The notes below the pieces were generated by a model, which worked only from the letters and a program-made list of their open reading frames with translations, made no database searches and had not been told where the DNA came from. A DNA stretch of 64,000 nucleotides. It comes from an uncultured delta proteobacterium. Lineage in GTDB: Bacteria > Desulfobacterota > RBG-13-43-22. The DNA lies in assembly GCA_963790475.1 (NCBI GenBank), contig CAWBOS010000006.1:160001-224000 (forward strand), written 5' to 3'. Both the position numbers and the translations under genes were made by a program. This document shows positions 19,315 through 43,263 of this stretch, piece after piece (position 1 is the stretch's first letter; each line of letters starts with the position of its first letter).

Positions 19315-19327
19315 AAGGGGGGATAAC

Positions 19328-23249: not shown

Positions 23250-23365
23250 ACCCTTTATCCTCGATCCTTTCTCCTTTATCCTAGAACCTCGCTCCTCAAA
23301 CCTGGTCAAACTCAACAAACCCAACCAATCCACCCAATCAGCTATCAGCAATGAGCCATGAGCTA
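23250..23365 (+). repeat. Right arm 7-mer array (NNNNCCT) followed by 9-mer and AGCTATG-type units
   Basis: ttatcct cgatcct ttctcct ttatcct agaacct cgctcct caaacct; then aactcaaca aacccaacc; then agctatc agcaatg agccatg agcta. Confidence 0.85.
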
Positions 23366-24391: not shown

Positions 24392-24430
24392 AGGTGCGAG
24401 GTCAATCGAATCAATGCGCGAGGGTGAAAG

Positions 24431-24688: not shown

Positions 24689-24747
24689 AGAAGATGGGTT
24701 AAGCAAGAATGAAAGTACGTTACAGATCATAAGGGAATAGATTTGCC

Positions 24748-25380
24748 ATGTTGTCCCATATTAGAATGCGTCTTTTTCATTCAGTTGAGACTATAGTTAA
24801 TAAGGGTTTCCCCTTTTTTTGTAAGGAAATTGTATTTATTAATAGAACATGTATCTTGTTAGAAAAAGGATTAAAAGGTTTTGTGCCTCCCCGGGTCAAT
24901 CGCAACCATTCCGATTTGGTATTGATTGAAATTAATTCAGATAATGTTGATAGATACTTTTTTCAATCAAGGACGAGACGTTTAAAAGCAATTGGATATG
25001 TTAAGAAAGGTTATCATGGGTATGGGATTGTTAGAGATAAAAAAATCATAGGAGATATTTGGTGTTTTATGCAAAACAGTTCTCCAAAAATTCATCCTGA
25101 CCTAAAATGGCTTGACATTAAATGCGCTCCGAATGAATGTTATTCATTTGATATGTATCTAAGTCTTGAAGAAAGAGGGGGTGGCAACTTGGCGGCTTTT
25201 CTTGAAAATGCCTTGTTTTACGATCTTCAAAGGAAAGGTTATGAGAGGATCTATGGTTACGTATGGGCGGATAACTTTCCTGCCCTTTGGGCCCATAGAG
25301 TAGTTAAATGGAAAGAGAAGAAAAAATTTGTGGTAAATCGGTTTCTAAATTTTAAAAAAAAAGCTAATAAAAGTGAATAA
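24748..25380 (+). CDS. GNAT-fold protein
   Basis: YSFDMYL..ERGGG..GYERIYGYVWADNFPA. Confidence 0.65.
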   Translation: MLSHIRMRLFHSVETIVNKGFPFFCKEIVFINRTCILLEKGLKGFVPPRVNRNHSDLVLIEINSDNVDRYFFQSRTRRLKAIGYVKKGYHGYGIVRDKKIIGDIWCFMQNSSPKIHPDLKWLDIKCAPNECYSFDMYLSLEERGGGNLAAFLENALFYDLQRKGYERIYGYVWADNFPALWAHRVVKWKEKKKFVVNRFLNFKKKANKSE

Positions 25381-25412
25381 GTGTTTTGAACCTTATCAAA
25401 TGAGGGTAAGCT

Positions 25413-26408
25413 ATGAATCAACTTGATATTCCCATGGTCCCACGACGCAAAGAAACATTACCAATAGTTTATGGAGATACTCCTTCTTTTTTGGGAGTGC
25501 CTGTTCTTGATGCAGAATCACAGCAAAAGGATTTAGATGTTATATTCATGGGTGTTCCCTGGGAGGGGACCATAACCTGGGGTTCTTTCACGGGATGCGA
25601 ACTCGCACCGCGAGTTATCAGACATGCCGCAGCCAGATATGGCGGTTTTCTTCCTGAATATGAATTAAACCTTTTTGATTATCTTAATCTTGCGGATATT
25701 GGTGATATATCGGTTAGTCCTAATACTCCCGCGGAGACCATGAAAAATATTTTTACCGCAGCTCAATCTATATATAAAAACAATAGCGTTCCCTTTACTC
25801 TTGGCGGGGACCATTCCATTAGTCCTGAGATTGTGAAAGCTTTGAGTGAATGTAAAGAGGGGGATATAGGCATAATTCATTTTGATGCCCATCTGGATAA
25901 TGCTAAGAAATTTGGAAAAGACCGTTTTCCCAGATGTGGTCCTCTTCACAGGATTGCGCAGATTCCAAAAGTAAGAAAGAAAAGTATTGTCCATGTCGGC
26001 ATAAGAGGGCCAAGGAATTCTCCATCTCAACTCGAGTATGCTCGGCAGATGGGAGCCAAGGTCTTTCATATGGGGGAGGTACGGAATCGGGGGATGGAAG
26101 CGGTTATTAGTGATGCGATTAATATTGCTCATGAGAAAACCAAACATGTCTATGTTACTATCTGCAGCGACTGTATAGACGCGGGATATAACCCTGGAGG
26201 GCCGGCAGATTTCAATGGACTTTTTCCCTATGAGTTATTCTCATCTCTTTACCAACTTGGAAAAACAGGGATATCCGGTCTTGATTATGTAGAGATTTAC
26301 CCGAATCAAGACCCTCAGTCATTTTCTGCCCATCTTGCTGCTTGGGCGATTATTTATGCGTTAGTTGGAATGGCGTCTAACAAAAAGAGTCAAAAAGGAG
26401 ATTATTAG
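25413..26408 (+). CDS. Ureohydrolase (agmatinase/arginase family), non-canonical active-site motifs
   Basis: GVPWE, LGGDHSI, HFDAHLD, VGIRG; second metal motif reads CSDCID. Confidence 0.85.
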   Translation: MNQLDIPMVPRRKETLPIVYGDTPSFLGVPVLDAESQQKDLDVIFMGVPWEGTITWGSFTGCELAPRVIRHAAARYGGFLPEYELNLFDYLNLADIGDISVSPNTPAETMKNIFTAAQSIYKNNSVPFTLGGDHSISPEIVKALSECKEGDIGIIHFDAHLDNAKKFGKDRFPRCGPLHRIAQIPKVRKKSIVHVGIRGPRNSPSQLEYARQMGAKVFHMGEVRNRGMEAVISDAINIAHEKTKHVYVTICSDCIDAGYNPGGPADFNGLFPYELFSSLYQLGKTGISGLDYVEIYPNQDPQSFSAHLAAWAIIYALVGMASNKKSQKGDY

Positions 26409-26409
26409 C

Positions 26410-27555
26410 GTGGATTTCTTGTTGAAAGACGACCAGATTAAACTAAAAGAGTCCGTCATTAATTTTGTGAAGCGTTCGCTGAATGATGGGGCTTACGAAC
26501 GCCGTAACAGCGAGGAGTTCTATTGGGATGGGTGGAAGAAATGTGCAGATTTTGGGATACTGGGGTTGCCCATGCCGCAGAAGTATGGAGGATTAGAAAT
26601 GGACTTGATGGGATGCGTGGCTGCCATGGAAGGATTCGGTTATGCTTCCAAGGATCCCGGATTGCTTTTCTCTATAAACACTCATATTTGGACTTGTGAA
26701 TTTCCCATTTTAAAGTTCGGTTCCGAAGAACAAAAAGAGAAATACCTTAGGGGGTTAATAAAAGGTTCTATAATTGGCGGACATGCAATGACCGAACCGG
26801 ATTCCGGTTCCGATGCTTTCAGCCTCAGGTGCAAAGCAATACGCGATGGCAACAAGTATATTCTTAATGGAACAAAGATGTTCATTACCAATGCACCTAT
26901 CGCCGATATTCTCCTTGTTTTTGCCCGGATCGATGATCGAAAAGGATTTGCCGGAATCTCGGTATTCATTGTGGAAAAGGATTTTCCTGGATTTTCCATC
27001 GGCAAACCGCTCAAGATGATGGGCCTCGAAGACTGTCCTCTTGGTGAAGTCATCTTGCGGGAATGCGAAGTACCCGTTGAAAACAGATTGGGGAGAGAAG
27101 GGGCAGGATCTGCGGTATTCAATTCGGAAATGGAACAAGAACGAAGCTGCCTGTTTGCCACCCACCTGGGAAGTATGGAAAAGATTCTGGAAGACTGCAT
27201 CGAATATGCCAAAACACGCCATCAGTTTGGTAAACCTATTGGGAGTAATCAATCGATTTCACATAAGATAGCCGAAATGAAGGTGCGGGTTGAAATGTCC
27301 CGACTTATTCTCTACAGGGTTGCATGGATTAAAACCATCGGTCAGCGCGCTCCTATGGAAGCTGCCATCGCTAAATTATTCATAAGCGAGAGTTATGTGG
27401 CTACATGTATGGATGCTCTTCAGATCCATGGTGCCTATGGTTATTCGAGAGAGTTTAGTATTGAAAGAAGTCTTCGGGACGCGATCGGATCAAAGATATA
27501 TTCGGGGACTTCCGAGATCCAGAGGAACATCATAGCAACTTTTTTAGGTCTTTAG
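26410..27555 (+). CDS. Acyl-CoA dehydrogenase family, L-prolyl-carrier-protein dehydrogenase-like (PltE/RedW/CloN3 type)
   Basis: WKKCADFGILGL, GLLFSINTHIW, MTEPDSGSDA, QIHGAYGY, IYSGTSEIQR; GTG 26410 after AAGGAG. Confidence 0.8.
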   Translation: MDFLLKDDQIKLKESVINFVKRSLNDGAYERRNSEEFYWDGWKKCADFGILGLPMPQKYGGLEMDLMGCVAAMEGFGYASKDPGLLFSINTHIWTCEFPILKFGSEEQKEKYLRGLIKGSIIGGHAMTEPDSGSDAFSLRCKAIRDGNKYILNGTKMFITNAPIADILLVFARIDDRKGFAGISVFIVEKDFPGFSIGKPLKMMGLEDCPLGEVILRECEVPVENRLGREGAGSAVFNSEMEQERSCLFATHLGSMEKILEDCIEYAKTRHQFGKPIGSNQSISHKIAEMKVRVEMSRLILYRVAWIKTIGQRAPMEAAIAKLFISESYVATCMDALQIHGAYGYSREFSIERSLRDAIGSKIYSGTSEIQRNIIATFLGL

Positions 27556-27576
27556 CCCCGGTTACAATAAGATTAT

Positions 27577-29190
27577 ATGTATTCATATCTTTTACACCAT
27601 CTTCTGACAAATACGGCCAGACAGAATCCGGATAAAAAGGCTGTTATCTTCAAAGATAAGTCGTTGACCTACTCAGAGCTGGATGCCCAGAGTGATCAAT
27701 TTGCCGCAACTTTGTCCGGGTTAGGCATAAGAATGGGAGACCGGGTCGGCATTATTCTCGGCAAATCCATTGAGGCCATCATCAGCATTTTTGGGATACT
27801 GAAGGCCGGAGCGGCCTATGTGCCTGTAGATTATCAGTCGCCGATGAGTCGGACACAACACATATTGAAGAATTGCGGCATCAGCGCTGTGATCTCATCT
27901 CATACAATGGCAGAGAAAATAATAAAAGACCCTGACCCGGAATTGTCTCTAAGAACAATCATAGTTACTGGAACCGACTCGCGAATCCTTGGCCATGGAG
28001 TAGGAATTAAATCGATATCTTTTGAGACGATATTGAATGAGGGAAAAAAAGATGATCCTCAAGTCGAAATGGCTGATGTCAGTCCTGCCTACATCCTGCA
28101 CACCTCCGGTTCAACGGGGTTGCCGAAGGGTGTCGTAATTTCACACCTGAACGCCCTTTCCTTTGTCAACATGGCCGCAGAGTTCTTTCACATAGGTATA
28201 GACGATAGGTTCGGCAATGTCGCGCCCCTTCACTTTGATCTTTCAGTGTTCGATATATTCGTTGCTGTTAAAGCCGGAGCGGCTATCATCTTAGTCCCGG
28301 AATATCTTACCGCTTTTCCGATAAGGTTAGCCGAGTATATAGAAAATCAGAGGATCACCGTATGGAATTCGGTTTCTTCGCTCCTATCGATGCTTGCCGA
28401 AAAAGGAGGGCTCGAAAGAGTTTCTCTGGAATCTTTGCGCATCTTACATTTTTCCGGAGAAATCCTGCCGATCAAATATCTCCGGATACTTAAGAATTGT
28501 ATGCAGAATGCGAAGTTCTATAATATCTACGGACAGACCGAAGCAAATTCCTCTGTGTACTATCAAGTCAGGGAACTCCAAGAAAATGACCATTGGAAGA
28601 TACCCATCGGCAGACCGTTTCCAAACTTTGAAGTGTTCATCATGGGGGAGGATGGCAGTGAGAAGACTGCTCCTGGCGATGAAGGGGAATTGTATGTCAA
28701 GAGCTCCACGGTAGCCATAGGTTACTGGGGCCGGGAGGAGGAAACGCGGGAGAAGTTCGTGTCAGACCCGCGAGACCTCTTCGGAAGGCAACGATGTTAC
28801 AAAACCGGAGATCTCGTCCGCATTGACGACGATGGCAATTACGTGTTCGTTGGCCGCAAGGACCACATGATAAAAAGCAGAGGCTATAGAATAGAGTTGG
28901 CGGAGATCGAGGCTGTTCTCAACAGCCACCCGCTCATTAGACAGGCCGTGGTAACAGCAATTCCTGATGAGCTAATCGGAAACAGGCTCATCGGCCACGT
29001 TTCATTAGTGGAACGAGGGGTATTGAGCAAAAATGATCTTTACAGGTTCTGCAGCAGTCCTTTGCCAAAGTATATGATACCCGGGGTTTTCAAGTTTCAC
29101 GATGGGTTGCCCTTGAGTTCAACGGGTAAGGTTAACAGAAAGGCTTTAGAAGGGCAGGACTTGAATGATTCGAAAGTAGAGGTAGGGTAA
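27577..29190 (+). CDS. Stand-alone amino acid adenylation enzyme (PltF/RedM/DltA-like)
   Basis: LKAGAAYVP, YILHTSGSTGLPKG, APLHFDLSV, NIYGQTE, YKTGD, GYRIELAEIE, STGKVNRKAL. Confidence 0.9.
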   Translation: MYSYLLHHLLTNTARQNPDKKAVIFKDKSLTYSELDAQSDQFAATLSGLGIRMGDRVGIILGKSIEAIISIFGILKAGAAYVPVDYQSPMSRTQHILKNCGISAVISSHTMAEKIIKDPDPELSLRTIIVTGTDSRILGHGVGIKSISFETILNEGKKDDPQVEMADVSPAYILHTSGSTGLPKGVVISHLNALSFVNMAAEFFHIGIDDRFGNVAPLHFDLSVFDIFVAVKAGAAIILVPEYLTAFPIRLAEYIENQRITVWNSVSSLLSMLAEKGGLERVSLESLRILHFSGEILPIKYLRILKNCMQNAKFYNIYGQTEANSSVYYQVRELQENDHWKIPIGRPFPNFEVFIMGEDGSEKTAPGDEGELYVKSSTVAIGYWGREEETREKFVSDPRDLFGRQRCYKTGDLVRIDDDGNYVFVGRKDHMIKSRGYRIELAEIEAVLNSHPLIRQAVVTAIPDELIGNRLIGHVSLVERGVLSKNDLYRFCSSPLPKYMIPGVFKFHDGLPLSSTGKVNRKALEGQDLNDSKVEVG

Positions 29191-32214: not shown

Positions 32215-32481
32215 ATGAACCGCTGGGGTATCCTGGGGGGCAGTCGGGCGGCTGAAAAATTGAAGTGGTATGGCCTGGATTAGTTGCAAAAATTGCAATT
32301 GGCCAAGCTGCAAAATATCCTGAGCTATACCGCCAACTGGGTGCCGTATTATCGGGACCTGTCTAATTGGATCGGGTTTGTACCGGAAGACCTAAAAGAG
32401 TTTGAAGATGTCCGGCGCCTCCCCTTTCTGTCGCGTTATGAAGCCATCAAGCACCACGAGGGGACGGTCGTAACGGCTTGA
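32215..32481 (+). pseudogene. Remnant of phenylacetate-CoA ligase/CapK-family gene
   Basis: LQLAKLQNILSY..VPYYR..EDVRRLPFL N-terminal signature; in-frame TAG at 32281-32283 and truncation at 32481. Confidence 0.75.
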
Positions 32482-32647: not shown

Positions 32648-33460
32648 ATGAGAAACCGTGCTAAAGAACTCACCGGCTTAACGGATTATTTAAGCCTGAT
32701 AGGCGTCCGCGATTTACCGCCTCTCACCTCTCCATTTGACCCGGGGTATGACCCGCTTACCCTGGAAAGTCACATGGAACAGAGCGCACACCTGATAGCA
32801 GTGTTAAAAATTTCCATGGCATGCTGGCAAATCGCAAACGAAGCCAGCACCCGCAGAAAAGTGGACGCGGCCAACCGGCTGAAAATCCCCACCTGCACCG
32901 GCGGAGGCCCCTTCGAAGTTGCCGTGCAGTTCGGCAAACTCCCAGGATTCCTCGATCTGGTCGCCGATATCGGTTTCAGGCGAATTGAAGCTGGCGAAGG
33001 GTTTACAGATATGCCTCTTCCTCCAGGGCATGTGATTAAACTGGCAGCCGAAAGAGGATTGGAGGTTCAATTCGAAGTCGGCAAGAAGCACGAAGGCACT
33101 TTTATCTCCGATGTCATTGAAGAGCTCATCGACCAAGGGAAAAGGTGGCTGGATGCCGGAGCCAAACAAATTGTGGTTGAAGCGCGAGAAAATGCCCAGA
33201 ATATTGGCGTATTTGGCAGTAAAGGCGAATTTGACGCATCGGCCGCTGACCGTTTCGCGAATGCCTTTGGGTTAGAGGTCGCAATTTTTGAGGCACCCAC
33301 TAAACCAAGCCAGTTCGCGATGTTAAACCATTTTGGTCCAATGGTCCACTTGAGTAATGTCCGCATCGAAGAACTGCTCCGCGTAGAAATTTACCGAAGA
33401 GGCCTCCACTCCGATGCTTTTCAACAAGACAACTTAAGACCGGTAGGGCCGTTAAAATAA
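32648..33460 (+). CDS. comA: Phosphosulfolactate synthase
   Basis: FDPG, LKIS, TGGGPFE, IEAGEGF, EVGKK, IVVEARE, FEAP, FGPMVHLSNV, EIYRRGLHSD. Confidence 0.85.
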   Translation: MRNRAKELTGLTDYLSLIGVRDLPPLTSPFDPGYDPLTLESHMEQSAHLIAVLKISMACWQIANEASTRRKVDAANRLKIPTCTGGGPFEVAVQFGKLPGFLDLVADIGFRRIEAGEGFTDMPLPPGHVIKLAAERGLEVQFEVGKKHEGTFISDVIEELIDQGKRWLDAGAKQIVVEARENAQNIGVFGSKGEFDASAADRFANAFGLEVAIFEAPTKPSQFAMLNHFGPMVHLSNVRIEELLRVEIYRRGLHSDAFQQDNLRPVGPLK

Positions 33461-33490
33461 AACTAAACTTTCACCTTAATCTTGCTTACG

Positions 33491-33526
33491 GTAAATTCCC
33501 CGCAGCTTGCTGCGTGGTAGTTCATT
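33491..33526. repeat. Short palindromic remnant resembling IS200/IS605-type or REP end
   Basis: CCCCGCAGCTTGCTGCGTGG hairpin followed by TAGTTCATT. Confidence 0.55.
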
Positions 33527-33632
33527 GCAGCGATAAACGAGTATTCGAAAAAATATTGACGTAAAAGGCAAGGAGACCACTTTTCTTATCTTGACCCGTT
33601 TGGAACAGTACAATAGAGTACTGAAAAATTTC

Positions 33633-34445
33633 ATGGGTAATAATCAAAGAACAATAAATGAAAACGAGTTAGAATCGTGGGAAATTATTTACGATGAACA
33701 AAGTTTCGTTGGGGATTTCTTCCGCCGAAGAATGGAAAAGGCTCTCTCGTGGGTCGACGCGATGAATTTCTCTGAAAATGCTATAATCTTTGATGCGGGT
33801 TGTGGCGGAGGCCGGTTGGTAGAAGAAGCTGTCAAGAAAGGGTATCACATAATCGGGATGGATTCCAATGAGGATGTGCTGAAGAAGGCGTTGGGTTCTC
33901 TGAAAAAAAGACCGGGCAGCAATTACTGCTTTTTACGAGGTGATGTCAAGATTATACCGGTGAAGGATTCAAGCCTGGACGCAATTATTTGCCTGGGGGT
34001 TATTTCTTATTTGAAATCGGAGATGACTGTTCTGCTTGAGTTTGCAAGAGTTTTGAAACCGGGTGGATTGCTTATTTTGAGTGCGACCAATAAGGCTCGG
34101 CTAGTGGGGCGCCTGGATATTCCTCTCATGATTTCGTCCATTAAAAAGAAGATTTTTGTGCACAAGAATATGAAGGAAGATGATGATTCTTCCAGAGAAG
34201 GAAATCATCGACAACGATCATATTTAATTCCTCGCTTCTCAAATTCGTTAGAATCCGCGGGGTTTTCTGTTTCAGGATACGTAACTTTTCCATATGAACT
34301 TCCCACATTATTTGGGCGAGAATTTCTACCACGAAGCTTCTCTGAAAAGGTCTCGTTGTTTATCGAACGATTTGCCAATTTACCCCTGGTTGGATCTTTT
34401 GGATCGAGGTGGATGATCAAAGCGCAAAAAAAGAACTTTTCATAA
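33633..34445 (+). CDS. Class I SAM methyltransferase
   Basis: FDAGCGGG, GDVKIIP, ARVLKPGG. Confidence 0.88.
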   Translation: MGNNQRTINENELESWEIIYDEQSFVGDFFRRRMEKALSWVDAMNFSENAIIFDAGCGGGRLVEEAVKKGYHIIGMDSNEDVLKKALGSLKKRPGSNYCFLRGDVKIIPVKDSSLDAIICLGVISYLKSEMTVLLEFARVLKPGGLLILSATNKARLVGRLDIPLMISSIKKKIFVHKNMKEDDDSSREGNHRQRSYLIPRFSNSLESAGFSVSGYVTFPYELPTLFGREFLPRSFSEKVSLFIERFANLPLVGSFGSRWMIKAQKKNFS

Positions 34446-34636
34446 GATAATTATTATAATAATGAAACCTATGCTTATTTTCAAGAGATCTATCGATTCG
34501 TCGCTGCAGTTTTCTGAATACGAGAATTCTCGTAGCTACGGTAAGCCGTTGAAAATAATCAAAATAAGTCCAGTCGTTCTCTGGAACCATCTATTAAAAT
34601 AAATCATGTGAAATTGCTATGTTGACGGGGAATCAT

Positions 34637-35371
34637 ATGATTGCAATTGATGTTTTTTACAACAAAAGACTTGACTACGATAACACGTATGCGATTTTGG
34701 CAGTAGATGTAATTCGGGCGACAACCACCGCCATTACTGGCGTTGCGATGGGGAGAAAGTGTTATCCAGCGTCTTCGATTGAAGACGCGACCACTCTCGC
34801 TAAAAAGCTGGTGAACCCGTTGCTGGTGGGTGAATTGGGCGGGAACATGCCCTACGGGTTTGACCTACAAAACAGCCCCTTTCTGGTGGCCTCACGGACC
34901 GATATTATCCGCCCGATGATTCTCCTTTCCACGTCCGGCACCCGACTCATCACCAAATATAAAGGCCACGATGCCGTTTACCCGGCCTGCCTCCGAAACT
35001 ACAAAGCGCTCATCCCCCACCTGGCGGCTCACCACGACAAAGTAGCCTTGATTGGCGCAGGCACTCGCGGAGAGTTCCGCGAGGAAGACCAGCTTTGCTG
35101 CGCGTGGATAGCCGAAGGGCTCATTCAGAACGGTTTTAAACCTGAAAACGAAATGACTGCGGAAATGATCGAGCGCTGGCGGCATGCTTCGGTCGACATT
35201 ATTAGAGACGGCGAAAGCGCCGCTTATCTCAACCGATCGGGGCAAACCCAGGATCTGGATTTTATCCTGGCGCATGTGGACGACCTGCCTTTTGTGTACC
35301 AATTTAAAAATGACCAGATTGTTGAACTGTCAAAAACCACAACTTGGGAAAAAGCTGTTTTATCAGAGTGA
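34637..35371 (+). CDS. comB: 2-phosphosulfolactate phosphatase
   Basis: VDVIRATTT, LLVGELGG..GFDLQNSP, STSGT, CLRN, EEDQLCC. Confidence 0.88.
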   Translation: MIAIDVFYNKRLDYDNTYAILAVDVIRATTTAITGVAMGRKCYPASSIEDATTLAKKLVNPLLVGELGGNMPYGFDLQNSPFLVASRTDIIRPMILLSTSGTRLITKYKGHDAVYPACLRNYKALIPHLAAHHDKVALIGAGTRGEFREEDQLCCAWIAEGLIQNGFKPENEMTAEMIERWRHASVDIIRDGESAAYLNRSGQTQDLDFILAHVDDLPFVYQFKNDQIVELSKTTTWEKAVLSE

Positions 35372-35375
35372 AACC

Positions 35376-36596
35376 TTGACTTTAAAGCAGACCAAAATTC
35401 GACTGAAGATAGAACCATCAACACCTTGCGTCGTGATCTGCCCAGGCTACCACGGGCACGGGGTCGCACGGAGTCTTGGACGGCTGGGCGTCCCTGTCTT
35501 CGGGGTGCATGCCAACCCGAGATCTCCTTCCGCTAGCTCACATTACTGGCGCAGCAACTATCTTTGGGACCTTTCGAAAGCCTCACCCGATGAATCTTTA
35601 AACTGGTTCCTTAAACTTGCCTGCACAATTGGACAACGCCCCATTCTCATTCCCACTGACGATCATAGCTGCTTGTTTGTAGACGACCACGCCGAAGCAC
35701 TGCTTCAGGAATACGAGTTCCCAAAGCAGCCAACCGGGCTGACACGTGCGCTCTCTAACAAAAAGCTGCTTTATTCGCTGTGCAACGAGGAGTCAATTCT
35801 AACCGCCGAGACAGTCTTTCCGCAGTCGCGCGCCGACGTCATCCAGTTTATGGAAAAAGGAAACTTCCCTGTTATGCTCAAAGGGATTGACACAGTCGCT
35901 CTTCAAAAACGGGTCGGGGTTCGCATGGTTATCGTCAATGACGGTGAGACGCTGCTGAAACGCTACGATGAGATGGAAATGCCCGGCGCGCCCAGTTTGA
36001 TGATGCAGGAGTATATCCCAGGAGGAGCGGAAAACGTGTGGATGTTCGACGGATATTTTGACAGCAATTCAAACTGTCGATTCGGAATCACTGCCCGCAA
36101 ACTGCGTCAGTACCCGGCCTATACAGGCATGACCAGCCTGGGAGTATGCGAAACCAACGAAACACTCTTTAACCAAATCCAGGCCTTTATGAAAGCGGTT
36201 GGGTACTGCGGCATTCTGGATATTGGCTACAAATATAACCCGGCTAACAGAAAATATTATCTCTTAGACCCCAATCCGCGACTCGGTTGTTCATTTCGTC
36301 TCTTTGTTGATTCCATCGATATGGACGTGGTAAGGGCACTGTATTGCGACCTGACTAGGCAACCTATCCCGACCGGGAAACCAGTGGAAGGGCGCAAATG
36401 GCTGGTTGAGCTCTTTGACATCGTCTCCTCCTATCGCTATTGGCGCGATGGAAATCTTAAGTTTGGAAACTGGCTGCATTCATTCCAGGGGTTGCAAGAG
36501 GCGCAATGGTTCGCTTGGGATGACATGCGCCCATTTCTTAATGTTTGGAAGTATTCCGCCGAGACGCTCTTCAAACCGAAAGAGAAAAAGAACTGA
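35376..36596 (+). CDS. ATP-grasp carboxylate-amine ligase (D-aspartate ligase-like)
   Basis: GVARSLGRLGV, LIPTDD, QEYIPG, KLRQYP, LDPNPR; start approximate. Confidence 0.82.
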   Translation: MTLKQTKIRLKIEPSTPCVVICPGYHGHGVARSLGRLGVPVFGVHANPRSPSASSHYWRSNYLWDLSKASPDESLNWFLKLACTIGQRPILIPTDDHSCLFVDDHAEALLQEYEFPKQPTGLTRALSNKKLLYSLCNEESILTAETVFPQSRADVIQFMEKGNFPVMLKGIDTVALQKRVGVRMVIVNDGETLLKRYDEMEMPGAPSLMMQEYIPGGAENVWMFDGYFDSNSNCRFGITARKLRQYPAYTGMTSLGVCETNETLFNQIQAFMKAVGYCGILDIGYKYNPANRKYYLLDPNPRLGCSFRLFVDSIDMDVVRALYCDLTRQPIPTGKPVEGRKWLVELFDIVSSYRYWRDGNLKFGNWLHSFQGLQEAQWFAWDDMRPFLNVWKYSAETLFKPKEKKN

Positions 36597-36620
36597 TGAC
36601 ACTGGAATACAGACACATCC

Positions 36621-37493
36621 ATGAAACCCCAGACAAAGAACAAAAACGCAAATTTCGTCACACCTCTCCAGTTTCATGAGGAAAAGAATAACGTCAACAC
36701 TTATTTCGCGTCTGAATCTTCGGGCTGGAACGATATCTATCAAAAAGAGGATGTCTATTCCATAATCCATCAAGACCGCCGTGCGATCGCGTTTCAATAT
36801 TTCCAGGAATTGTCGCTGCCGCGGGATGCCCGCATACTGGAAATTGGGTGCGGCGCCGGTTTAACCTCGGTGGATATCGCCCGTCAGGGTTATGTCGTCC
36901 AAGCGGTTGATAGCGTGGAAGCCATGATTGACCTGACTCGTAAGAATGCGCTCAAATTTGGAATGGAAAAACAAATTCACGCCAGCGTGATGGATGTGTA
37001 TAACCTACAGTTTTCAAAACAAACCTTTGCCCTGGTCATAGCCCTGGGGGTGGCTCCTTGGCTTGCCGACCTGAACAGGGCTCTCAAAGAAATCTCAAGG
37101 GTGCTAACTCCCGGGGGGTATGTCCTGATGAATGTGGATAACCGCTATCGCCTCAATCACCTGCTAGACCCGTTTTATTTTCCCAGGCTCGCTGGTTTGA
37201 AAGAGCGGTTGAGGGATTTCCTAGAAAAGGCTAGCGTGTGCAAAACTTCCAGCATTCCCCGCCCTAAAAGACACAGCATCAAAGAGTTTGAGTCCCTGCT
37301 CGAGTCCGCCAGTCTGGTCAAACTAAAACACCGGATGCTTGGGTTTGGCCCATTTACCTTTTTAAAGATTCGCCTGTTCCCGAACTCAGTTGGAATCAAG
37401 CTTCATCGGTACCTACAAAACGAGGCCGACAAGGGAACCCCCCTCCTCCGTTCGACCGGGTCACAATACCTGGTTCTGGCGCATAAAATGTAA
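36621..37493 (+). CDS. Class I SAM methyltransferase
   Basis: LEIGCGAG, RVLTPGG; similar to 33633-34445. Confidence 0.88.
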   Translation: MKPQTKNKNANFVTPLQFHEEKNNVNTYFASESSGWNDIYQKEDVYSIIHQDRRAIAFQYFQELSLPRDARILEIGCGAGLTSVDIARQGYVVQAVDSVEAMIDLTRKNALKFGMEKQIHASVMDVYNLQFSKQTFALVIALGVAPWLADLNRALKEISRVLTPGGYVLMNVDNRYRLNHLLDPFYFPRLAGLKERLRDFLEKASVCKTSSIPRPKRHSIKEFESLLESASLVKLKHRMLGFGPFTFLKIRLFPNSVGIKLHRYLQNEADKGTPLLRSTGSQYLVLAHKM

Positions 37494-37526
37494 CTTGTTA
37501 TTCCTTTTTTCATTCAACCAACCAAA

Positions 37527-38837
37527 ATGAACTCAATAATTTCTCTCAAGACCGGGGTCTGGTACGGCGATAGGCAAATTAATTTGCCCATCCCCTCGAG
37601 TTGGGATGTAAAGGTCCTTTGGCCGGCCACCCCCCCCCCTCTGACGGCGGAAGAGTTATTGAGCACCCTGGAACATCCAATAGGCAAAGCGAGGCTGACT
37701 GAAGTCTGCCGGAAGAAATCCCGACCCTTGATTCTCGTTGATGACCTGAACCGCCCTACCCCCACAGCCGAAATCATGCCGCATTTGCTAAAAATGATGA
37801 GCACGGTCGGCATCCCCTCCGAAGCGATCAAAATCCTCATGGCTACCGGTACGCATGGCCAACCGGAACCAGACGCTGTTCTCAAAAAGGTAGACGCAGC
37901 ATTCGCTAACGATCAACTACAGGTACACAACTGCTTTGCGGACACTATAAAAATTGGGGTTACCTCCTCCGGTATACCTGTATTTGTGAACAAAATCGTC
38001 ATGGAAAGCGATGTGGTCATTGGCATCAGCGGAATTTACCCCAACCACACCGCCGGTTTTGGCGGCGGGTCCAAGCTTGCTCTAGGCGTGTTGGGGATTC
38101 AAACCATCTACCATTTGCACTTTCGTCACAAGTCGGCCGGCTGGGGGAATTTCTTTCCGGAGATGGGTTTCCGACGGGATCTGGATGAAATCGCCAGAAT
38201 GATTGGTATGGAATTTAATATCTCCCTGATTATTGACGCTAACCGGCAGATCGTTCGGATGTATTGTGGCGACCCAATCGCCTACTTCCCTCGAGCAGTT
38301 TTATATTACCAGCAGGTGTTCCGTACCCAGCTCCCCGGCGATGCAGATGTCGTCATCTCAAATGCCTACCCCAACGATTGTTCACTCACATTTACGCGGA
38401 TGAAGGGATTTGTTCCGCTTGCTCTGTGCACCCCAGCAGCGACTAGAATTGCTATTTCTGCATGTCCTGAGGGGCTAGGGCTTCATAATATCTGGCCGTT
38501 TGTAAACGTGCCGCCGCGTCACCGGTTGAAACATATCCTGCGGGTTTTATCCGTCCTGACTTTAAAAGAAATCCTGGTGAGGGGGTTTCGCACCGCAATC
38601 TCCCCACTCACGAAAAGGCTTACCAACCGGCAGAAGTCAGGGAACCTAAAGGCGCTCCAATCCGTATGGCTGTACCAGACGTGCGGCTCAGAAATTAATC
38701 TACCAGCAAATGTGCCCGGAATCCATATCACATCGGATTGGCAAAAAATCCTTGAGGCTGTTCTTCGAGAACAGTCGAATCGAAATCAGCTCAAGGTTTT
38801 GGTTTATCCGTGCGCTTTTCTTCAACTGTTCGAATAA
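37527..38837 (+). CDS. LarA-family (nickel-pincer) hydroxyacid racemase/epimerase
   Basis: DDLNRPTP, ATGTH, AGFGGGSK, MKG motifs. Confidence 0.8.
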   Translation: MNSIISLKTGVWYGDRQINLPIPSSWDVKVLWPATPPPLTAEELLSTLEHPIGKARLTEVCRKKSRPLILVDDLNRPTPTAEIMPHLLKMMSTVGIPSEAIKILMATGTHGQPEPDAVLKKVDAAFANDQLQVHNCFADTIKIGVTSSGIPVFVNKIVMESDVVIGISGIYPNHTAGFGGGSKLALGVLGIQTIYHLHFRHKSAGWGNFFPEMGFRRDLDEIARMIGMEFNISLIIDANRQIVRMYCGDPIAYFPRAVLYYQQVFRTQLPGDADVVISNAYPNDCSLTFTRMKGFVPLALCTPAATRIAISACPEGLGLHNIWPFVNVPPRHRLKHILRVLSVLTLKEILVRGFRTAISPLTKRLTNRQKSGNLKALQSVWLYQTCGSEINLPANVPGIHITSDWQKILEAVLREQSNRNQLKVLVYPCAFLQLFE

Positions 38838-38856: not shown

Positions 38857-41001
38857 ATGACTATGAGAGTTTGTATGATTGCATATACCTTCTATGAAAA
38901 CGACAATCGAGTAAGACGATATGCCGATGCCTTGGTAAAAAGAGGGGATCATGTAGATGTGGTAGCGTTGCGAAATCCCGAGTTCGCAGAGCAGGAGAAC
39001 TTTCATGGAGTTAACATATACCACATTCAAGCAAGAATCCAAAATGAGAAGCATAAGCTGTTGTATTTGGCAAAGCTACTACTTTTTCTGGTTAACTCCG
39101 GAATATTTGTCACAAAGCAACACTTGAAAAATCCATATGATGTGCTTCATATCCATAATGTCCCGGACTTCTTGGTATTTTCCGGTTTGATACCAAAGCT
39201 AAAGGGTGCAAAAGTCATTCTCGATATTCATGACATAGTCCCTGAGTTTTACGCCTCCAAATTCAAAGTCTCCAAGGATTCTCTGGTTTGTAAAGTGTTG
39301 ATGCAGATCGAGAAACTGTCGATAGCTTTTTCGGACCACGTAATTATCTCCAATCATATTTGGGAGCAAAGACTCCTCTCACGATCTATCTCGAAAGAGA
39401 AGTGTTCCGTTTTTCTCAATTACCCGGACCCCGTACTATTCTATCCGCGGAAAGTGGAGAGAGAGGCGAATAAACTAATTTTCTTATACCCCGGAACCTT
39501 GGCGTGGCACCAGGGTTTGGACGTTGCTATCAAGGCATTTGCTCTGGTAAGAGACGAGCTTGAATCTGCTGAAATGCATGTCTATGGTGGTGGCCCTGAA
39601 AGGAGAAGACTCGAGCTACTCGCTACTGAACTTGGGATAAGTCGACAAGTTGTTTTCAAGGGATCATTTCCTATAGATGAGATTGTCGATGTTATGGCGA
39701 GGTCGAACATTGGGGTGGTCCCTAAAAGAAATGATTCGTTTGGAGGGGAGGCTTTTAGCACAAAGATATTTGAGTTCATGTCTCTCGGGGTTCCCGTGAT
39801 TGCTTCGAGGACTAGGATCGACTCTTACTATTTCGATAAGTCTGTCATCCAGTTCTTCGAGCCGGGAGACGAGAATGATTTGGCGAGATGTATGATTCTG
39901 CTCGGAAAAAACAAGGGGCTACGAGATGGCATCGCAGACCGGGCCCTGGAATTTATCAAGCAATACTCGTGGGATAAAAAGAAACAAGCCTATTTTGAGT
40001 TGGTGGATGGGTTGGTCCGGAAGAATGGCGTTGTGAAAACCTCTGGGGGACAGGCAACTAGTAAGCTGCTGGGGGTTTATTATTTGATGAAACCATTCAT
40101 ACCGAGGCGCCTGCAGATCCAGATACGGAGAAGGGTTGCGTCACGAAAGAGTATCTCCAATCGACATATTTGGCCCATTAACGAGCAAACGTCAAAAAAA
40201 CCTGAAGCATGGCGCGGGTGGCCCGATGACAAACGTTTTGCCCTGGTCCTTACCCACGACGTGGAAGGAGCCAAGGGTGTCCCGAATTGTCTCAGGTTGG
40301 CCGATCTCGAGCAAGATCTTGGCTACCGGTCTTCTTTTAACTTCGTGGCCCTGGACTACGAGATTTCGAAGGAATTGATGGATAGTTTACGGGCTCGGGG
40401 GTTCGAGATTGGCCTGCACGGTCTCTATCATCATGGAAATTTGTTCAAATCCAGAAGGGCTTTTCAAAAGCAAGTTCCTCGGATTAATGAATTTTTGAAG
40501 AAATGGAATGCGGCGGGCTTCAGATCCCCCAGTATGTATCATAATTTGGAATGGATCTGTGATTTGGATATTGAGTATGATGCCTCCACATTCGATACGG
40601 ACCCATTCGAACCTCAACCGGACAGCGCGGGTACGATTTATCCGTTTATCATATCAAGGAACGGATCGAAAAGCGGATTCGTGGAGCTGCCCTATACACT
40701 TCCGCAAGACCATCTGTTGTATGTGGTGATGAGAGAAAGAACTCCCTCAATCTGGAAGCAAAAACTGGATTGGATTGCCGAGAAAGGCGGTCTGGCCTTA
40801 ATAATTACTCATCCTGATTACATAGACTTCGCTGATAAGAGAAAGCCTGTGGATGCCTATCCGGCCAATTATTATGTTGAATTTCTCCAATATATCAAAG
40901 ACCGGTACGATGGGCAGTACTGGCATGCGCTTCCGAAAGATGTCGCCCGGTTCATACGGGAATCAGAAACAGCAGCTCAGTCGTCTATAAATGGAAAATA
41001 A
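38857..41001 (+). CDS. GT4 glycosyltransferase fused to a NodB-type deacetylase-like domain
   Basis: DNRVRR, HNVPD, LDIHD, STKIFEFM; C-terminal LTHDVE, EIGLHG, GFRSP, ITHPDY. Confidence 0.85.
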   Translation: MTMRVCMIAYTFYENDNRVRRYADALVKRGDHVDVVALRNPEFAEQENFHGVNIYHIQARIQNEKHKLLYLAKLLLFLVNSGIFVTKQHLKNPYDVLHIHNVPDFLVFSGLIPKLKGAKVILDIHDIVPEFYASKFKVSKDSLVCKVLMQIEKLSIAFSDHVIISNHIWEQRLLSRSISKEKCSVFLNYPDPVLFYPRKVEREANKLIFLYPGTLAWHQGLDVAIKAFALVRDELESAEMHVYGGGPERRRLELLATELGISRQVVFKGSFPIDEIVDVMARSNIGVVPKRNDSFGGEAFSTKIFEFMSLGVPVIASRTRIDSYYFDKSVIQFFEPGDENDLARCMILLGKNKGLRDGIADRALEFIKQYSWDKKKQAYFELVDGLVRKNGVVKTSGGQATSKLLGVYYLMKPFIPRRLQIQIRRRVASRKSISNRHIWPINEQTSKKPEAWRGWPDDKRFALVLTHDVEGAKGVPNCLRLADLEQDLGYRSSFNFVALDYEISKELMDSLRARGFEIGLHGLYHHGNLFKSRRAFQKQVPRINEFLKKWNAAGFRSPSMYHNLEWICDLDIEYDASTFDTDPFEPQPDSAGTIYPFIISRNGSKSGFVELPYTLPQDHLLYVVMRERTPSIWKQKLDWIAEKGGLALIITHPDYIDFADKRKPVDAYPANYYVEFLQYIKDRYDGQYWHALPKDVARFIRESETAAQSSINGK

Positions 41002-41066: not shown

Positions 41067-41432
41067 ATGAAGGAAACCGAGGGGAAGAACAAGAAGTACG
41101 ATTTAGAGGACCGGACTTTTGAATTTGCACGAGAGGTTATTGCTTTTGTCAATAAACTGAAAAAAACGTTGGCGAATATTGAAATTGGAAAACAACTGAT
41201 CCGGGCCGCCGGTTCAGTTGGAGCAAATTATATCGAGGCAAATGAAGGGCTGAGCAGGAAGGATTTCATTATGAGAATAAAGATCTGCCGAAAGGAAGCC
41301 AAGGAAGCCGGATACTGGATTCGTCTGATCGATTGCGAAGAAGGTCTGGAAAGTTCTAGAGAAAAGTTGGTGAGCGAAAGCAAAGAGTTAACTAAAATAT
41401 TTGGAGCAATAATTATTAGATGCAAATCCTAA
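41067..41432 (+). CDS. Four-helix-bundle protein (23S rRNA IVP/Avd-like family)
   Basis: YDLEDRTFEFA..QLIRAAGSVGANYIEANE..ICRKEAKEAGYW. Confidence 0.92.
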   Translation: MKETEGKNKKYDLEDRTFEFAREVIAFVNKLKKTLANIEIGKQLIRAAGSVGANYIEANEGLSRKDFIMRIKICRKEAKEAGYWIRLIDCEEGLESSREKLVSESKELTKIFGAIIIRCKS

Positions 41433-41875: not shown

Positions 41876-41961
41876 TGTCAGATTTTTGGATTGGGGTATT
41901 TGAATATTAGTATGGTCTATTATTTTCGGATTTCGAATTTGGGATTTAGAGTTTGACCAGA

Positions 41962-43263
41962 ATGCGTCTCGATCGTCTATTAACCCTATATCTATTTGGT
42001 CCTCTGGCTCGCCTCCGCAAACCCAGGGGTCTGCGAATCCCCATCCTCATGTATCACAGTATTTCCGATGACCCGGAAACCGGCCATCCGTACTATTGGA
42101 TCAACACATCCCCGGCATGCTTCGCCGAACACATGAAATTTCTTTATGATAATGGATATCAGGTAATTCCCCTCTCAACCGCGGTCGAAATGATCCGGAT
42201 GGAAAAAACTAATTCTAAAATTCTAAATTTTAACCTCGAACCTCGAACCTCGAACCTCGAACCTGGATCGAACCTCGAACCTCGAACCTCGAACCCCGAA
42301 AAGGGATTAACCAACAAACCAAACAAACTTAACGAACTCAATAACCCAATAGACCCAATCAACCAGCCAACCAATCAATCCGATCAATTAAATGGACTGG
42401 ATAGACCAAACCAACAAAATAGACCCAATGAACTCAAGGAACCCGAAGAACCCAATGAACTCAACCAACCCAATAGACTCAAAGAACCAGAGAAACCCCG
42501 CTACGTGGTCTTAACCTTTGACGATGGCTATCTCGACTTCTACACCGAAGCCTTTCCCATCCTCCAGCAATACGGTTTCCACGCAACCGTGTTTCTTCCG
42601 ACGATCTTCATCGATGGGAAAAGACCAGGCCTTCGGGGTAAGGAGCACCTCAACTGGGATCAGGTTCGCGAACTTCGTACCGTCGGCATTACTATCGGCT
42701 CTCACACCTGCAGCCACCCACAGCTTTACGATTTGCCGTTAGATAAAATTGAGCAGGAACTCCACCGGTCAAAAGAATCAATCGAATTTCATCTGAATCA
42801 AACAACCAACAAAGAAGTTAAGCAATCAGCCCAGTCAACCAATAAGCCCAATAAACTAAATGAATCCTATGAGCTATCAGCTATGAGCTATAAGCCATTT
42901 CCACCCGATCACCCGATCACCCTGTCTTCCGTGGATTCTTTTTGTTATCCTTATAAATTTCCCGGGCAAAACAAAGCTTTTCGAACTTTGCTATCCGATT
43001 CCTTGAAGAAAACAGGCTATAACAACTGCGTTACGACGAGGATAGGATCATACAATACCGCGGAGGATATTTTGTGTATGAAACGGTTGCCTATGAATAG
43101 GGCCGACGACCATTGGCTTTTTCGTGCGAAGCTTCAGGGAGGCTATGATTGGCTTGCGTGTCTTCAATCCCTGACTAAAAAAACCAACAGGGGGAGCAGA
43201 GTTGGCCGTCCGGTAGGTCAAATGATCGAGAAAGTCCAAACAAAGGCAGGGGTAAGAGCATGA
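41962..43263 (+). CDS. Polysaccharide deacetylase (NodB/IcaB-like) with two long repeat-derived in-frame insertions
   Basis: PILMYHSI, LTFDDGY, IGSHTCSH, FCYPY; low-complexity inserts between conserved blocks. Confidence 0.88.
   Translation: MRLDRLLTLYLFGPLARLRKPRGLRIPILMYHSISDDPETGHPYYWINTSPACFAEHMKFLYDNGYQVIPLSTAVEMIRMEKTNSKILNFNLEPRTSNLEPGSNLEPRTSNPEKGLTNKPNKLNELNNPIDPINQPTNQSDQLNGLDRPNQQNRPNELKEPEEPNELNQPNRLKEPEKPRYVVLTFDDGYLDFYTEAFPILQQYGFHATVFLPTIFIDGKRPGLRGKEHLNWDQVRELRTVGITIGSHTCSHPQLYDLPLDKIEQELHRSKESIEFHLNQTTNKEVKQSAQSTNKPNKLNESYELSAMSYKPFPPDHPITLSSVDSFCYPYKFPGQNKAFRTLLSDSLKKTGYNNCVTTRIGSYNTAEDILCMKRLPMNRADDHWLFRAKLQGGYDWLACLQSLTKKTNRGSRVGRPVGQMIEKVQTKAGVRA
42208..42495 (+). repeat. 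In-frame stacked repeats: AATTCTA-type, AACCTCG x9 (7 perfect), then 9-mer array
   Basis: Directly visible; encodes NLEPRTS.. and NKPNKLNELN.. Confidence 0.92.
42795..42925 (+). repeat. Second in-frame stacked repeat insert (AATCAACC-like, AGCTATG, CACCCGAT units)
   Basis: tatgagc tatcagc tatgagc tataagc; cacccgat cacccgat caccctgt. Confidence 0.85.

Follow-up and report, generated by a model that had tools for sequence, protein, structure and literature searches.

A ComA-ComB-ATP-grasp cassette in an exopolysaccharide locus of an uncultured delta proteobacterium, with a possible role in coupling sulfolactate to a glycan

In methanogens, two enzymes of coenzyme M synthesis lead to sulfolactate: ComA adds sulfite to phosphoenolpyruvate (PEP), and ComB then yields (R)-3-sulfolactate. 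A bacterial ComA/ComB pair outside coenzyme M synthesis is known from Bacillus subtilis, where YitD and YitC make the sulfolactate of the spore. To our knowledge, this sulfolactate is free, and the Bacillus pair has no ligase, methyltransferase or LarA partner. An ATP-dependent amidoligase that decorates capsular sugars, Cj1438, is known from Campylobacter jejuni, where a phosphatase step comes later.

The window, i.e. the whole stretch of 64,000 nt that was analysed, covers positions 160,001-224,000 of the forward strand of contig CAWBOS010000006.1 (GCA_963790475.1, uncultured delta proteobacterium, RBG-13-43-22). A co-directional run of six genes is located at 32648..38837, Table 1, and all six genes named by a first-pass annotation of this DNA are confirmed in position and strand (+). 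According to the annotation of the window, the run sits within an XrtA/PEP-CTERM-type exopolysaccharide locus. A literature search found no published account of this cassette, and sulfolactate decoration of exopolysaccharide would, if true, be previously undescribed.

Table 1. The six-gene run and two downstream genes, in window coordinates.
Feature	Position	Strand	Supporting match
comA-like, putative phosphosulfolactate synthase, 270 aa	32648..33460	+	Pfam ComA PF02679, E 9e-43
MT1, class I SAM methyltransferase	33591..34445	+	Methyltransf_11, E 4.5e-18
comB-like, putative 2-phosphosulfolactate phosphatase, 250 aa	34619..35371	+	PF04029, E 8e-36
Predicted ATP-grasp carboxylate-amine ligase	35376..36596 (ORF 35184-36596)	+	Fold and NCBIfam
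MT2, class I SAM methyltransferase	36621..37493	+	Methyltransf_11, E 5e-18
LarA homologue	37527..38837	+	Lar_N PF09861, E 3.8e-37
GT4 glycosyltransferase fused to a weakly CE4-like C-terminal domain	38857..41001	+	Glycos_transf_1, E 1.1e-22
CE4 polysaccharide deacetylase	41953..43263	+	Polysacc_deac_1, E 1.8e-21

The most likely function of the cassette, to which we give a probability of about 0.5, would be to make sulfolactate and to couple it to exopolysaccharide by reusing two coenzyme M enzymes. At the observed level there are gene identities, folds, motif conservation, synteny and genomic setting, and from these we infer every chemical step, the acceptor and the sulfonated-glycan product. 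The ComA-like protein would add sulfite to PEP to give (2R)-phosphosulfolactate, and the ComB-like protein would remove the phosphate, leaving (R)-3-sulfolactate. The ligase would then convert the sole carboxylate of sulfolactate into an acyl phosphate and join it to an amine, most likely on an amino sugar, either within the repeat unit or at the stage of the nucleotide-sugar precursor. The amine could be supplied in the locus by a sugar 3-dehydrogenase together with an aminotransferase, or by deacetylases. The product would be a surface polymer with a sulfonate that is bound to carbon and permanently charged. The two methyltransferases, both of the MT2 family, and the LarA homologue may be optional add-ons that alter the sulfolactate unit.

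The conserved core of the cassette is comA-comB-ATP-grasp. Among 80 fetched ligase loci, ComA is present in 70 and ComB in 71, and the order comA-comB-ligase is kept within 2.5 kb in 51. Of the 53 loci in which the ligase has 4 kb or more of flank on both sides, 49 contain both. The LarA homologue is present in only 15 of the 80 loci, i.e. of the four-gene co-occurrence proposed earlier the ComA-ComB-ligase part holds and the LarA part does not. The carriers belong to at least eight bacterial phyla, and there is one archaeal genome. The cassette is patchy within its lineage, as the ligase is found in 1 of 21 genomes of the host's order. Of three genomes in which the ligase locus has no comA or comB, two encode no ComA anywhere, so that the family of the ligase is not bound to sulfolactate in every case.

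The ligase ORF has no Pfam match at E 0.001, only CPSase_L_D2 at E 0.025, and it matches the NCBIfam carbamoyl-phosphate-synthase-like ATP-grasp model (E 4.9e-10). The true start is the ATG at 35310 (428 aa) or the TTG at 35376 (406 aa), not 35184. The predicted structure (pLDDT 81.9) is an ATP-grasp fold (Foldseek E about 1e-13), most similar to 2pn1 (Z 25.3), followed by PurK (23.1), an L-amino-acid ligase (22.4) and PylC (21.0). K169, E212, D298, N300 and R302, at positions expected for ATP/metal binding, are invariant in 20 ligase sequences. The protein is thus predicted to be a dedicated ATP-grasp carboxylate-amine ligase, and it is outside any Pfam family. We found 3300 homologues, of which the best 120 are all at least 56% identical. 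Many homologues are labelled "D-aspartate ligase" by JGI, an automatic name only.

MT2 orthologues (at least 33% identity) occur in 38 of the 80 ligase loci, so that MT2 is often the cassette's fourth gene, and the LarA homologue is immediately downstream of MT2 in 30 of 48 distinct metagenome loci. One ligase homologue, P0008, is a natural ATP-grasp-MT2 fusion, and its fused domain is 63% identical to MT2 over 288 aa. The solved relatives of MT2 are generic only. The gene inserted between comA and comB, MT1, is a divergent MT2 paralogue. Over its full length it shares 23% identity with the MT2-type domain of P0008, its matches in other loci are solely to MT2 genes (20-30% identity), and its GC content is 0.415, compared with 0.51 for comA and comB.

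The closest solved relative of the LarA homologue is the malate racemase Mar2 (6d6z, E 1.4e-30), and its best NCBIfam model is the malate racemase LarAH6, where it reaches 177.9 bits and the cut-off is 500. Malate corresponds to sulfolactate with a carboxylate in place of the sulfonate. The LarA clade and the cassette are linked, although LarA is accessory: when the clade is used as the starting point, 19 of 22 distinct loci contain ComA and 18 of 22 all three core genes. The equivalents of R75, H108, K184, H200 and K298, among them the NPN tether lysine and a Ni-binding histidine, are retained in all 15 LarA-clade sequences. LarB, LarC and LarE, whose presence was a proposed check, are all encoded in the genome. 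All this would fit a true sulfolactate racemase that feeds the (S)-isomer to the ligase, as the first-pass annotation suggested, a reading we find possible but doubtful. All 15 sequences have Asn at the equivalent of the catalytic His174, while the three other LarA paralogues of the genome retain His, and therefore racemisation is not the default reading. The invariant H134, H201 and H320 of the clade could stand in for the missing base. However, the published two-histidine mechanism requires both histidines (PMC11770544), and homologues missing one are thought to catalyse other chemistry (PMC7583248; 10.1101/2025.08.19.671153). With a single catalytic histidine, a non-canonical inversion or another NPN-dependent isomerisation may replace ordinary racemisation. 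Furthermore, most cassettes function without LarA, which is distributed patchily across the ligase tree (21 changes on 86 labelled tips); there is no LarA-specific lineage in this tree and no sign of the ligase adapting to a LarA-made isomer. Judged by its predicted active site, the LarA homologue is not a canonical racemase.

The gene clusters in the neighbourhood of the cassette include GT4, priming sugar transferases, UDP-sugar dehydrogenases, DegT aminotransferases, CE4 deacetylases, export proteins and flippases. At least one, two and three glycan families are present in 40, 32 and 25 of the 46 long loci (at least 18 kb), compared with 19, 8 and 4 of 150 random 21-kb control windows, all from this single genome and scored, like the loci, with context profiles trained partly on the loci. 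This bears out the polysaccharide setting. It argues against a soluble sulfolactate conjugate, such as an N-sulfolactyl amino acid, an osmolyte or a cofactor-like compound, for which the polymer would be untouched and the setting would reflect co-regulation or chance. We consider such a conjugate unlikely also because in this window the cassette is flanked on both sides by glycosyltransferases in a single co-directional gene run, and because no conserved small-molecule exporter or transporter is seen beside the cassette among the clustered neighbour genes of the fetched loci. It would agree better with the 6 of 46 long loci that have none of the modelled glycan families, and with the second ATP-grasp that adjoins comA in some loci (10 loci in a D-Ala-D-Ala-ligase-like cluster), which suits the stepwise building of a small molecule. 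It would also agree with the acceptor side, as no acceptor-making neighbour gene is universal in the 80 loci or the 46 long loci.

A deacetylase or sugar aminotransferase directly adjoins the cassette in 12 of the 80 loci and occurs anywhere in 18 of the 46 long loci. In 9 of the 80 loci a CE4 gene is no more than 1.2 kb from the cassette, and 22 have one anywhere in the locus; in several Gemmatimonadota and Longimicrobium loci a CE4 deacetylase comes immediately after the ligase. In the window, adjacent deacetylases had been proposed to free the amino sugar. One of them, the CE4 deacetylase in Table 1, is solid and is a possible source of the free sugar amine. The second is a weak match of the C-terminal 283 aa of the GT4 fusion (Polysacc_deac_1, E 0.0045; XrtA-system deacetylase TIGR03006, E 1e-3), and homologues of this domain occur close to the cassette in 4 of 80 loci from genomes and in 4 of 80 from metagenomes. 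The GT4 fusion itself is a possible maker of the acceptor.

The comA-like protein scores 146.9 bits with PF02679 (cut-off 25.2) and retains the EVGKK, E-x-RE and FEAP-x-K motif blocks of M. jannaschii ComA (1qwg, E 7.7e-27). In 102 cassette-linked homologues, 86 of the 270 positions are at least 97% conserved. The closest solved relative of the comB-like protein is 2yyv (E 1.1e-16), and its blocks DVIRAT, GE, NSP and F-R-x-ED are at least 97% conserved in 101 homologues. Each gene is present in one copy, and the comA-like gene is the sole ComA-family gene of the genome. Profile searches find no comC, comD or comE in the window, as the first-pass annotation had noted, and no Ldh_2/ComC or sulfopyruvate decarboxylase alpha subunit in the whole genome (estimated completeness 100%). 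In a genome without ComC and ComD, comA and comB are not for coenzyme M, in line with the description of them as repurposed coenzyme M genes. The genome also contains dsrA; as it encodes a dissimilatory sulfite reductase, sulfite is central to the metabolism of this cell.

Both proteins score below the NCBIfam equivalog cut-offs (145.8 against 280 for archaeal ComA, 91.5 against 235 for ComB). These scores, the identity of about 30% to the characterised ComA, and a clade tightly conserved internally (58-71% identity across phyla) are compatible with a distinct specificity, i.e. another nucleophile or substrate and a different 3-substituted 2-hydroxy acid for the ligase. We judge this quite unlikely, as all blocks in common with M. 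jannaschii ComA are retained and nearly invariant, the genome is that of a sulfite producer, and we know of ComA paired with ComB from sulfolactate synthesis only.

Sulfolactate could also be linked via its 2-hydroxyl, with a GT4 glycosylating it and the ATP-grasp amidating the free carboxylate or acting elsewhere. BshA, the N-acetylglucosaminyl-malate synthase, glycosylates malate, the nearest LarA relatives are malate-type, and 10 of the 80 loci have a GT4 gene no more than 1.2 kb away from the cassette. The two GT4 genes of the locus match BshA weakly (E 4.4e-11 and 5.3e-14), far under the cut-off and no better than other GT4 models, and no particular GT4 is conserved next to the cassette in the fetched loci, which makes this linkage improbable. 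A catabolic cassette, in which the ATP-grasp phosphorylates imported sulfolactate and ComA runs in reverse to PEP and sulfite, is very improbable: a reverse ComA role is proposed for SAR11 transporter islands (PMC11796062), some ATP-grasp proteins are kinases and inositol phosphate kinases rank low among the fold matches, but the operon's own phosphatase would reverse the kinase step, conserved transporters are missing next to the cassette and the setting is biosynthetic.

Compared with methanogen coenzyme M synthesis (ComA MJ0255, 1qwg; ComB), the cassette has the same two families with the same order of action, and (R)-sulfolactate is the expected product of its pair too. It differs in the missing ComC and ComD, in the low identity and sub-equivalog scores, and in the location of its genes within a polysaccharide operon, where they are coupled to an ATP-grasp ligase. 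The structure 1u83, which we take to be Bacillus YitD, is a far weaker match to the comA-like protein (E 1.4e-10) than the archaeal 1qwg.

With known LarA enzymes, the homologue has in common the Lar_N domain, the NPN-tether Lys, the Ni-binding His, one catalytic His and the Arg and Lys for the substrate carboxylate, and the genome encodes the enzymes that make the cofactor, but its second catalytic His is Asn. It is outside the published single-histidine subfamily, whose structures it matches only at E 1.5e-7 (9q3j) and 6.9e-7 (9q2u), and is linked to comA/comB, whereas that subfamily is linked to glycolytic genes (10.1101/2025.08.19.671153).

As for XrtA/PEP-CTERM loci, the window matches the NCBIfam models for the export protein, chain-length determinant, ATPase and tyrosine kinase, and also the FemAB-like, acyl ligase and AsnB-type amidotransferase models. 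However, most scores are under the equivalog cut-offs, profile searches of the 64-kb window show no exosortase gene, and the models for these loci include no ComA/ComB cassette.

The predicted ligase has the fold (Z 21-25), the invariant Lys/Glu and the D-x-N-x-R block of ATP-grasp carboxylate-amine ligases (L-amino-acid ligases, PylC, PurK, PurT), so that by analogy an acyl-phosphate mechanism would be expected, but it is only 9-17% identical to any solved ATP-grasp member and under every Pfam threshold. Likened by description, the logic of Cj1438 is similar: it combines a small phosphorylated unit, an amide formed on a glycan at the expense of ATP, and a phosphatase. There the sugar gives the carboxylate and the small molecule the amine, while here the small molecule has a carboxylate only.

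Six close-set genes, encoding a ComA-family protein, a first class I methyltransferase (MT1), a ComB-family protein, a protein of 406-428 amino acids, a second class I methyltransferase (MT2) and a LarA homologue, form the cassette, with a methyltransferase on each side of the comB-ligase pair. In the best-supported reading, to which we assign a probability of about 0.5, repurposed coenzyme M enzymes make sulfolactate, which is then ligated as part of an exopolysaccharide pathway.

Positions of the cassette and of other features in the window
Feature	Position	Strand	Remark
Six-gene cassette, comA-like to LarA homologue	32648-38837	+	ComA-family, MT1, ComB-family, 406-428 aa protein, MT2, LarA homologue
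MT1	33591-34445	+	class I methyltransferase
ATP-grasp ligase	35184 (ORF as listed); likely start ATG 35310 or TTG 35376	+	listed ORF overlaps comB; 406-428 aa from the likely starts
MT2	36621-37493	+	class I methyltransferase
LarA homologue	37527-38837	+	
GT4 fusion	38857-41001		GT4 with a weakly CE4-like C-terminal domain
65-aa open frame	32284-32481	+	in a 430-nt gap directly upstream of comA
PF05635 gene	41067-41432	+	'23S rRNA intervening sequence protein'
Second tailoring module	23351-29190	+	
Neighbouring ORFs, 195 and 232 aa	53899-55215	+	
Anchor-repeat protein	57445-61308	+	1287 aa
Sigma-54-type match	51260-51274	+	
520-aa ORF	51330-52892		
Sigma-54 activators	6255 and 9500		

The ComA-like protein matches PF02679 with 146.9 bits (cut-off 25.2, E 9e-43). 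In the alignment with 1qwg its active-site blocks are identical, including the lysine of EVGKK, which corresponds to Lys137 of M. jannaschii ComA, the general acid. Of its 270 positions, 86 show at least 97% conservation among 102 homologues; all blocks in common with the M. jannaschii enzyme fall among them, as do K147, E143, E178, R180, E181, E215 and K219. The score against the archaeal ComA equivalog model TIGR03849 is 145.8 bits, below the cut-off of 280. Judged by its sequence, the protein is a member of the ComA family, not the archaeal equivalog, and it is predicted to add sulfite to PEP. The ComB-like protein matches PF04029 (123.7 bits, cut-off 26.4, E 8e-36) with conserved DVxRAT, GE and NSP blocks, and does not reach the NCBIfam equivalog models (91.5 vs 235 required). 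Both proteins have one copy each in the genome, at this locus. Among solved structures, the sole matches of MT2 are generic class I methyltransferases.

Coenzyme M synthesis was rejected as the role of the cassette. ComC (Ldh_2) and sulfopyruvate decarboxylase (ComDE; TIGR03845) have no match in the whole genome, which is estimated to be 100% complete with 9.7% contamination. The absence of comC/D/E described earlier for the window thus holds genome-wide, and with these enzymes missing the cassette does not make coenzyme M. The genome encodes dsrA, and sulfite is therefore a central intermediate.

The fourth protein of the cassette has no Pfam family at E 0.001 (CPSase_L_D2 reaches 14.5 bits, cut-off 19.8), scores 39 bits against NF009406, far under the cut-off of 271, and as a profile finds solved sequences with a best E of only 0.0018. 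Its AlphaFold model (pLDDT 81.9) has an ATP-grasp fold, matching 2pn1 (Z 25.3, rmsd 3.4 over 291 residues), PurK (Z 23.1), an L-amino-acid ligase and PylC at Z 21-25, with Foldseek E values of about 1e-13. K169, E212, D298, N300 and R302 do not vary among 20 homologues, and in the protein atlas all its clusters are of the 'carboxylate-amine ligase family'. On the strength of the model we assign it as an ATP-grasp enzyme. All six genes being present and the Pfam-less protein being of this class, the gene list of the first-pass annotation is correct and its observation confirmed. That the ligase joins sulfolactate, as the acid, to an amine is something we infer from synteny alone.

To describe the conservation of the cassette, all counts were taken from tblastn or six-frame profile searches; simple ORF calling erred in high-GC loci. 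In the protein collection 3300 proteins are related to the ligase, with an identity of 56% or more for each of the best 120, and the ComA clade comprises 4977 protein clusters at E <=1e-50. A scan at one genome per species gave 382 ligase relatives, and the best 80 of these 382 loci were examined. By tblastn, ComA is found in 70 of the 80 loci at 58-71% identity and ComB in 71, the order comA-comB-ligase inside 2.5 kb is seen in 51, an MT2 orthologue (at least 33% identity) in 38 and a LarA homologue in 15. Where at least 4 kb is available on each side of the ligase, both ComA and ComB are present in 49 of 53 loci and neither in three. This linkage of ComA, ComB and ligase across loci defines the core as a three-gene cassette. 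MT2, fused to the ligase once (in P0008, a relative of the ligase), is a frequent fourth member and LarA is accessory. The co-occurrence of the four genes, set earlier as a check, therefore holds for the trio but not for LarA.

According to the record titles, the carriers belong to Calditrichota, Chloroflexota, Acidobacteriota, Gemmatimonadota, Actinomycetota, Bacteroidota/Ignavibacteria/Chlorobi, Proteobacteria and Myxococcota, with one Methanomicrobiales genome. Three ligase homologues (loci L027, L029 and L055, 47-55% identity) are without comA or comB within 10 kb. ComA is missing altogether from two of the three genomes, which means that some paralogues of the ligase must act on another acid. 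At L027 and L029, the gene after the ligase is similar to the C-terminal domain of the GT4 fusion found in the window.

The window resembles an exopolysaccharide locus of the XrtA/PEP-CTERM type. Its export and assembly genes encode a chain-length determinant, an export protein, a tyrosine kinase, an ATPase, a flippase and a priming sugar transferase, and several GT2 and GT4 enzymes are present. A sugar 3-dehydrogenase (19283-20455) and an aminotransferase (21606-22793) would be expected to supply 3-amino sugars. Further genes encode a CE4 deacetylase, an AsnB-type amidotransferase, a FemAB-like protein, an adenylating enzyme and a carrier protein, and the polysaccharide locus adjoins HdrA and benzoyl-CoA reductase genes. 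The PEP-CTERM markers mostly score just under their cut-offs (TIGR03007, 273.1 vs 278.85; TIGR03015, 302.1 vs 324.5), with TIGR03025 above (300.6 vs 295.55), and no exosortase gene was found within the 64-kb window.

In other genomes, the clusters most often found near the cassette have as representatives enzymes of glycan synthesis (GT4 enzymes, priming transferases, UDP-sugar dehydrogenases), DegT aminotransferases, FemAB-like proteins, CE4 deacetylases, flippases and export proteins, together with regulators that carry sigma-54 activator, PilZ and GGDEF domains. Profiles were built for 11 glycan families and scored on the 46 loci of at least 18 kb. At least one family is present in 40 of these loci, at least two in 32 and at least three in 25, compared with 19, 8 and 4 of 150 random 21-kb windows of the source genome, a contrast that is indicative and not exact, as the profiles were trained partly on the scored loci and the control comes from one genome. 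Six of the 46 loci contain none of the modelled families. Within 1.2 kb of the cassette, we counted GT4 in 10 of the 80 loci, FemAB-like proteins in 10, CE4 in 9, priming transferases in 7, flippases in 7 and DegT in 4. No single acceptor-making gene is universal among the loci examined. The proposal that adjacent deacetylases free the amino sugar acceptor is unsupported as stated.

A second tailoring module encodes a FemAB-like transferase, a small carrier protein, an arginase-family enzyme, an acyl-carrier dehydrogenase nearest to the PigA/RedW prolyl-carrier-protein dehydrogenases (439.7 bits, cut-off 500) and a stand-alone amino-acid adenylation enzyme (TIGR01733, 372.7 bits, above the cut-off of 317.4). 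This module may transfer a dehydro-amino-acyl or pyrrole-type acyl group onto the polymer. The second of the two neighbouring short ORFs corresponds to the C-terminal half of a GT4 only, and the pair may represent a GT4 gene that has been split or frameshifted. The 1287-aa protein, which lies where the polysaccharide locus ends, carries four repeat domains of the 'choice-of-anchor Z' type (NF058597, E 1.5e-114) and is followed by wecB and then by a REP-associated tyrosine transposase gene.

MT1 is a distant full-length paralogue of MT2, with a GC content of 0.415 vs 0.51 for the flanking comA and comB, and no specific orthologue was found in the other cassette loci examined; its features suggest that it was inserted later. 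Apart from MT1, the cassette has a GC content of 0.49-0.51 and the genome 0.488, so composition yields no transfer signal. The ligase is present in one of 21 genomes of the order, solely the window's own, and in three of 401 sampled genomes of the phylum. Searched at E 1e-40, the other 20 genomes of this order gave no orthologue of the flanking GT2, which makes the whole central part of the locus species-specific. The 65-aa open frame upstream of comA matches residues 8-58 only, the N-terminal part, of a PaaK/CapK-type phenylacetate-CoA ligase (TIGR02155, E 5.9e-7) and then reaches a stop; it is a remnant of such a ligase gene and suggests a past rearrangement at the 5' edge of the cassette. 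Taken together, the rarity of the ATP-grasp ligase, the unique GT2 and this remnant indicate a species-specific, recombining polysaccharide region. The PF05635 gene (E 4.3e-14) lies inside the polysaccharide gene run with a GC content of 0.407 and is followed by a 520-nt gap.

Between 30800 and 42200 no sigma-70 promoters or terminators were found beyond shuffled expectation, and the sigma-54 consensus search gave no site near comA. A sigma-54-type match, TGGCATTTTATTTGC, lies about 70 nt before the 520-aa ORF, with a count of such matches in the window that is not above chance; two sigma-54 activators are encoded upstream.

A broader claim is that a widespread pathway adds sulfolactyl groups, i.e. 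a carbon-bonded sulfonate, optionally methylated or isomerised, to surface polysaccharides of many bacterial phyla and some archaea, and includes the first LarA-type nickel-pincer enzyme devoted to an organosulfonate; we hold this tentatively, at somewhat less than even odds. The anionic groups known to decorate microbial polysaccharides are carboxylates, phosphates and sulfate esters. If true, the sulfonate would be a new type of glycan decoration, charged at any pH and resistant to sulfatases and phosphatases, and would alter the metal binding and hydration of biofilm matrices and their recognition by phages or predators. It would also give a new role to the ComA and ComB families, hitherto regarded as specific for coenzyme M or spores. 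Many of the 4977 ComA-type clusters and 3300 ligase relatives come from soil and sediment, and given this abundance the product could be a real organosulfur pool. Our search of openly accessible articles and preprint texts found no paper that describes the cassette.

A reciprocal scan of metagenome contigs with a LarA-clade profile gave 180 relatives, of which 80 were kept, 64 of them distinct at 95% identity; the YPN motif was among the search patterns, so this set is selected for the Asn described below. Of the 22 distinct LarA loci that have 4 kb or more of flanking sequence on each side, ComA is found in 19, ComB in 19, the ligase in 18 and MT2 in 17, while the trio is wholly absent from three. 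LarA is directly preceded by MT2 in 30 of 48 distinct metagenome loci. On a FastTree phylogeny of 114 ligases, LarA presence requires 21 changes over 86 labelled tips; shuffled labels give a mean of 28, with 21 or fewer in one of 500 shuffles. LarA is thus an accessory gained or lost many times, and there is no LarA-specific lineage of the ligase. LarC (443.5 bits), LarE (256.4, cut-off 150) and LarB (309.1, cut-off 175), the partners proposed for checking, are all encoded in the genome.

The LarA homologue contains Lar_N (PF09861, 127.9 bits, E 3.8e-37). Its best solved relative is the malate racemase Mar2 (E 1.4e-30), and among NCBIfam models it scores highest against LarAH6, a malate racemase group, though far under the cut-off. 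Malate is the carboxylate analogue of sulfolactate. We conclude, as a substrate lead, that the clade acts on sulfolactate or a derivative. The equivalents of K184 (NPN tether), H200 (Ni-binding) and R75 are kept in all 15 cassette LarA sequences, and those of His108 and Lys298 are also kept in the clade. However, of the two catalytic histidines of L. plantarum LarA, His108 and His174, the clade keeps His108 alone: the His174 position corresponds to Asn173 of the window protein and is also Asn in its 14 cassette-linked orthologues, whereas the genome's other three LarA paralogues have His there. Three additional histidines, His134, His201 and His320, are invariant. The accepted mechanism employs both histidines, according to PMC11770544, and homologues missing one are thought to catalyse other chemistry, as stated in PMC7583248. 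The racemisation step proposed earlier is thus unsupported as stated, and we conclude that racemase is an unsuitable name for the cassette clade.

If the sulfolactate reading is true, it would provide a biological context for a single-histidine LarA clade. A separate Asn-bearing LarA subfamily has been described, with substrates given as unknown in 10.1101/2025.08.19.671153. This published single-histidine subfamily, group 17, includes the LarA of Blautia wexlerae and Streptococcus plurextorum, to which the window LarA is remotely similar in the N-terminal domain only (E 1.5e-7 and 6.9e-7).
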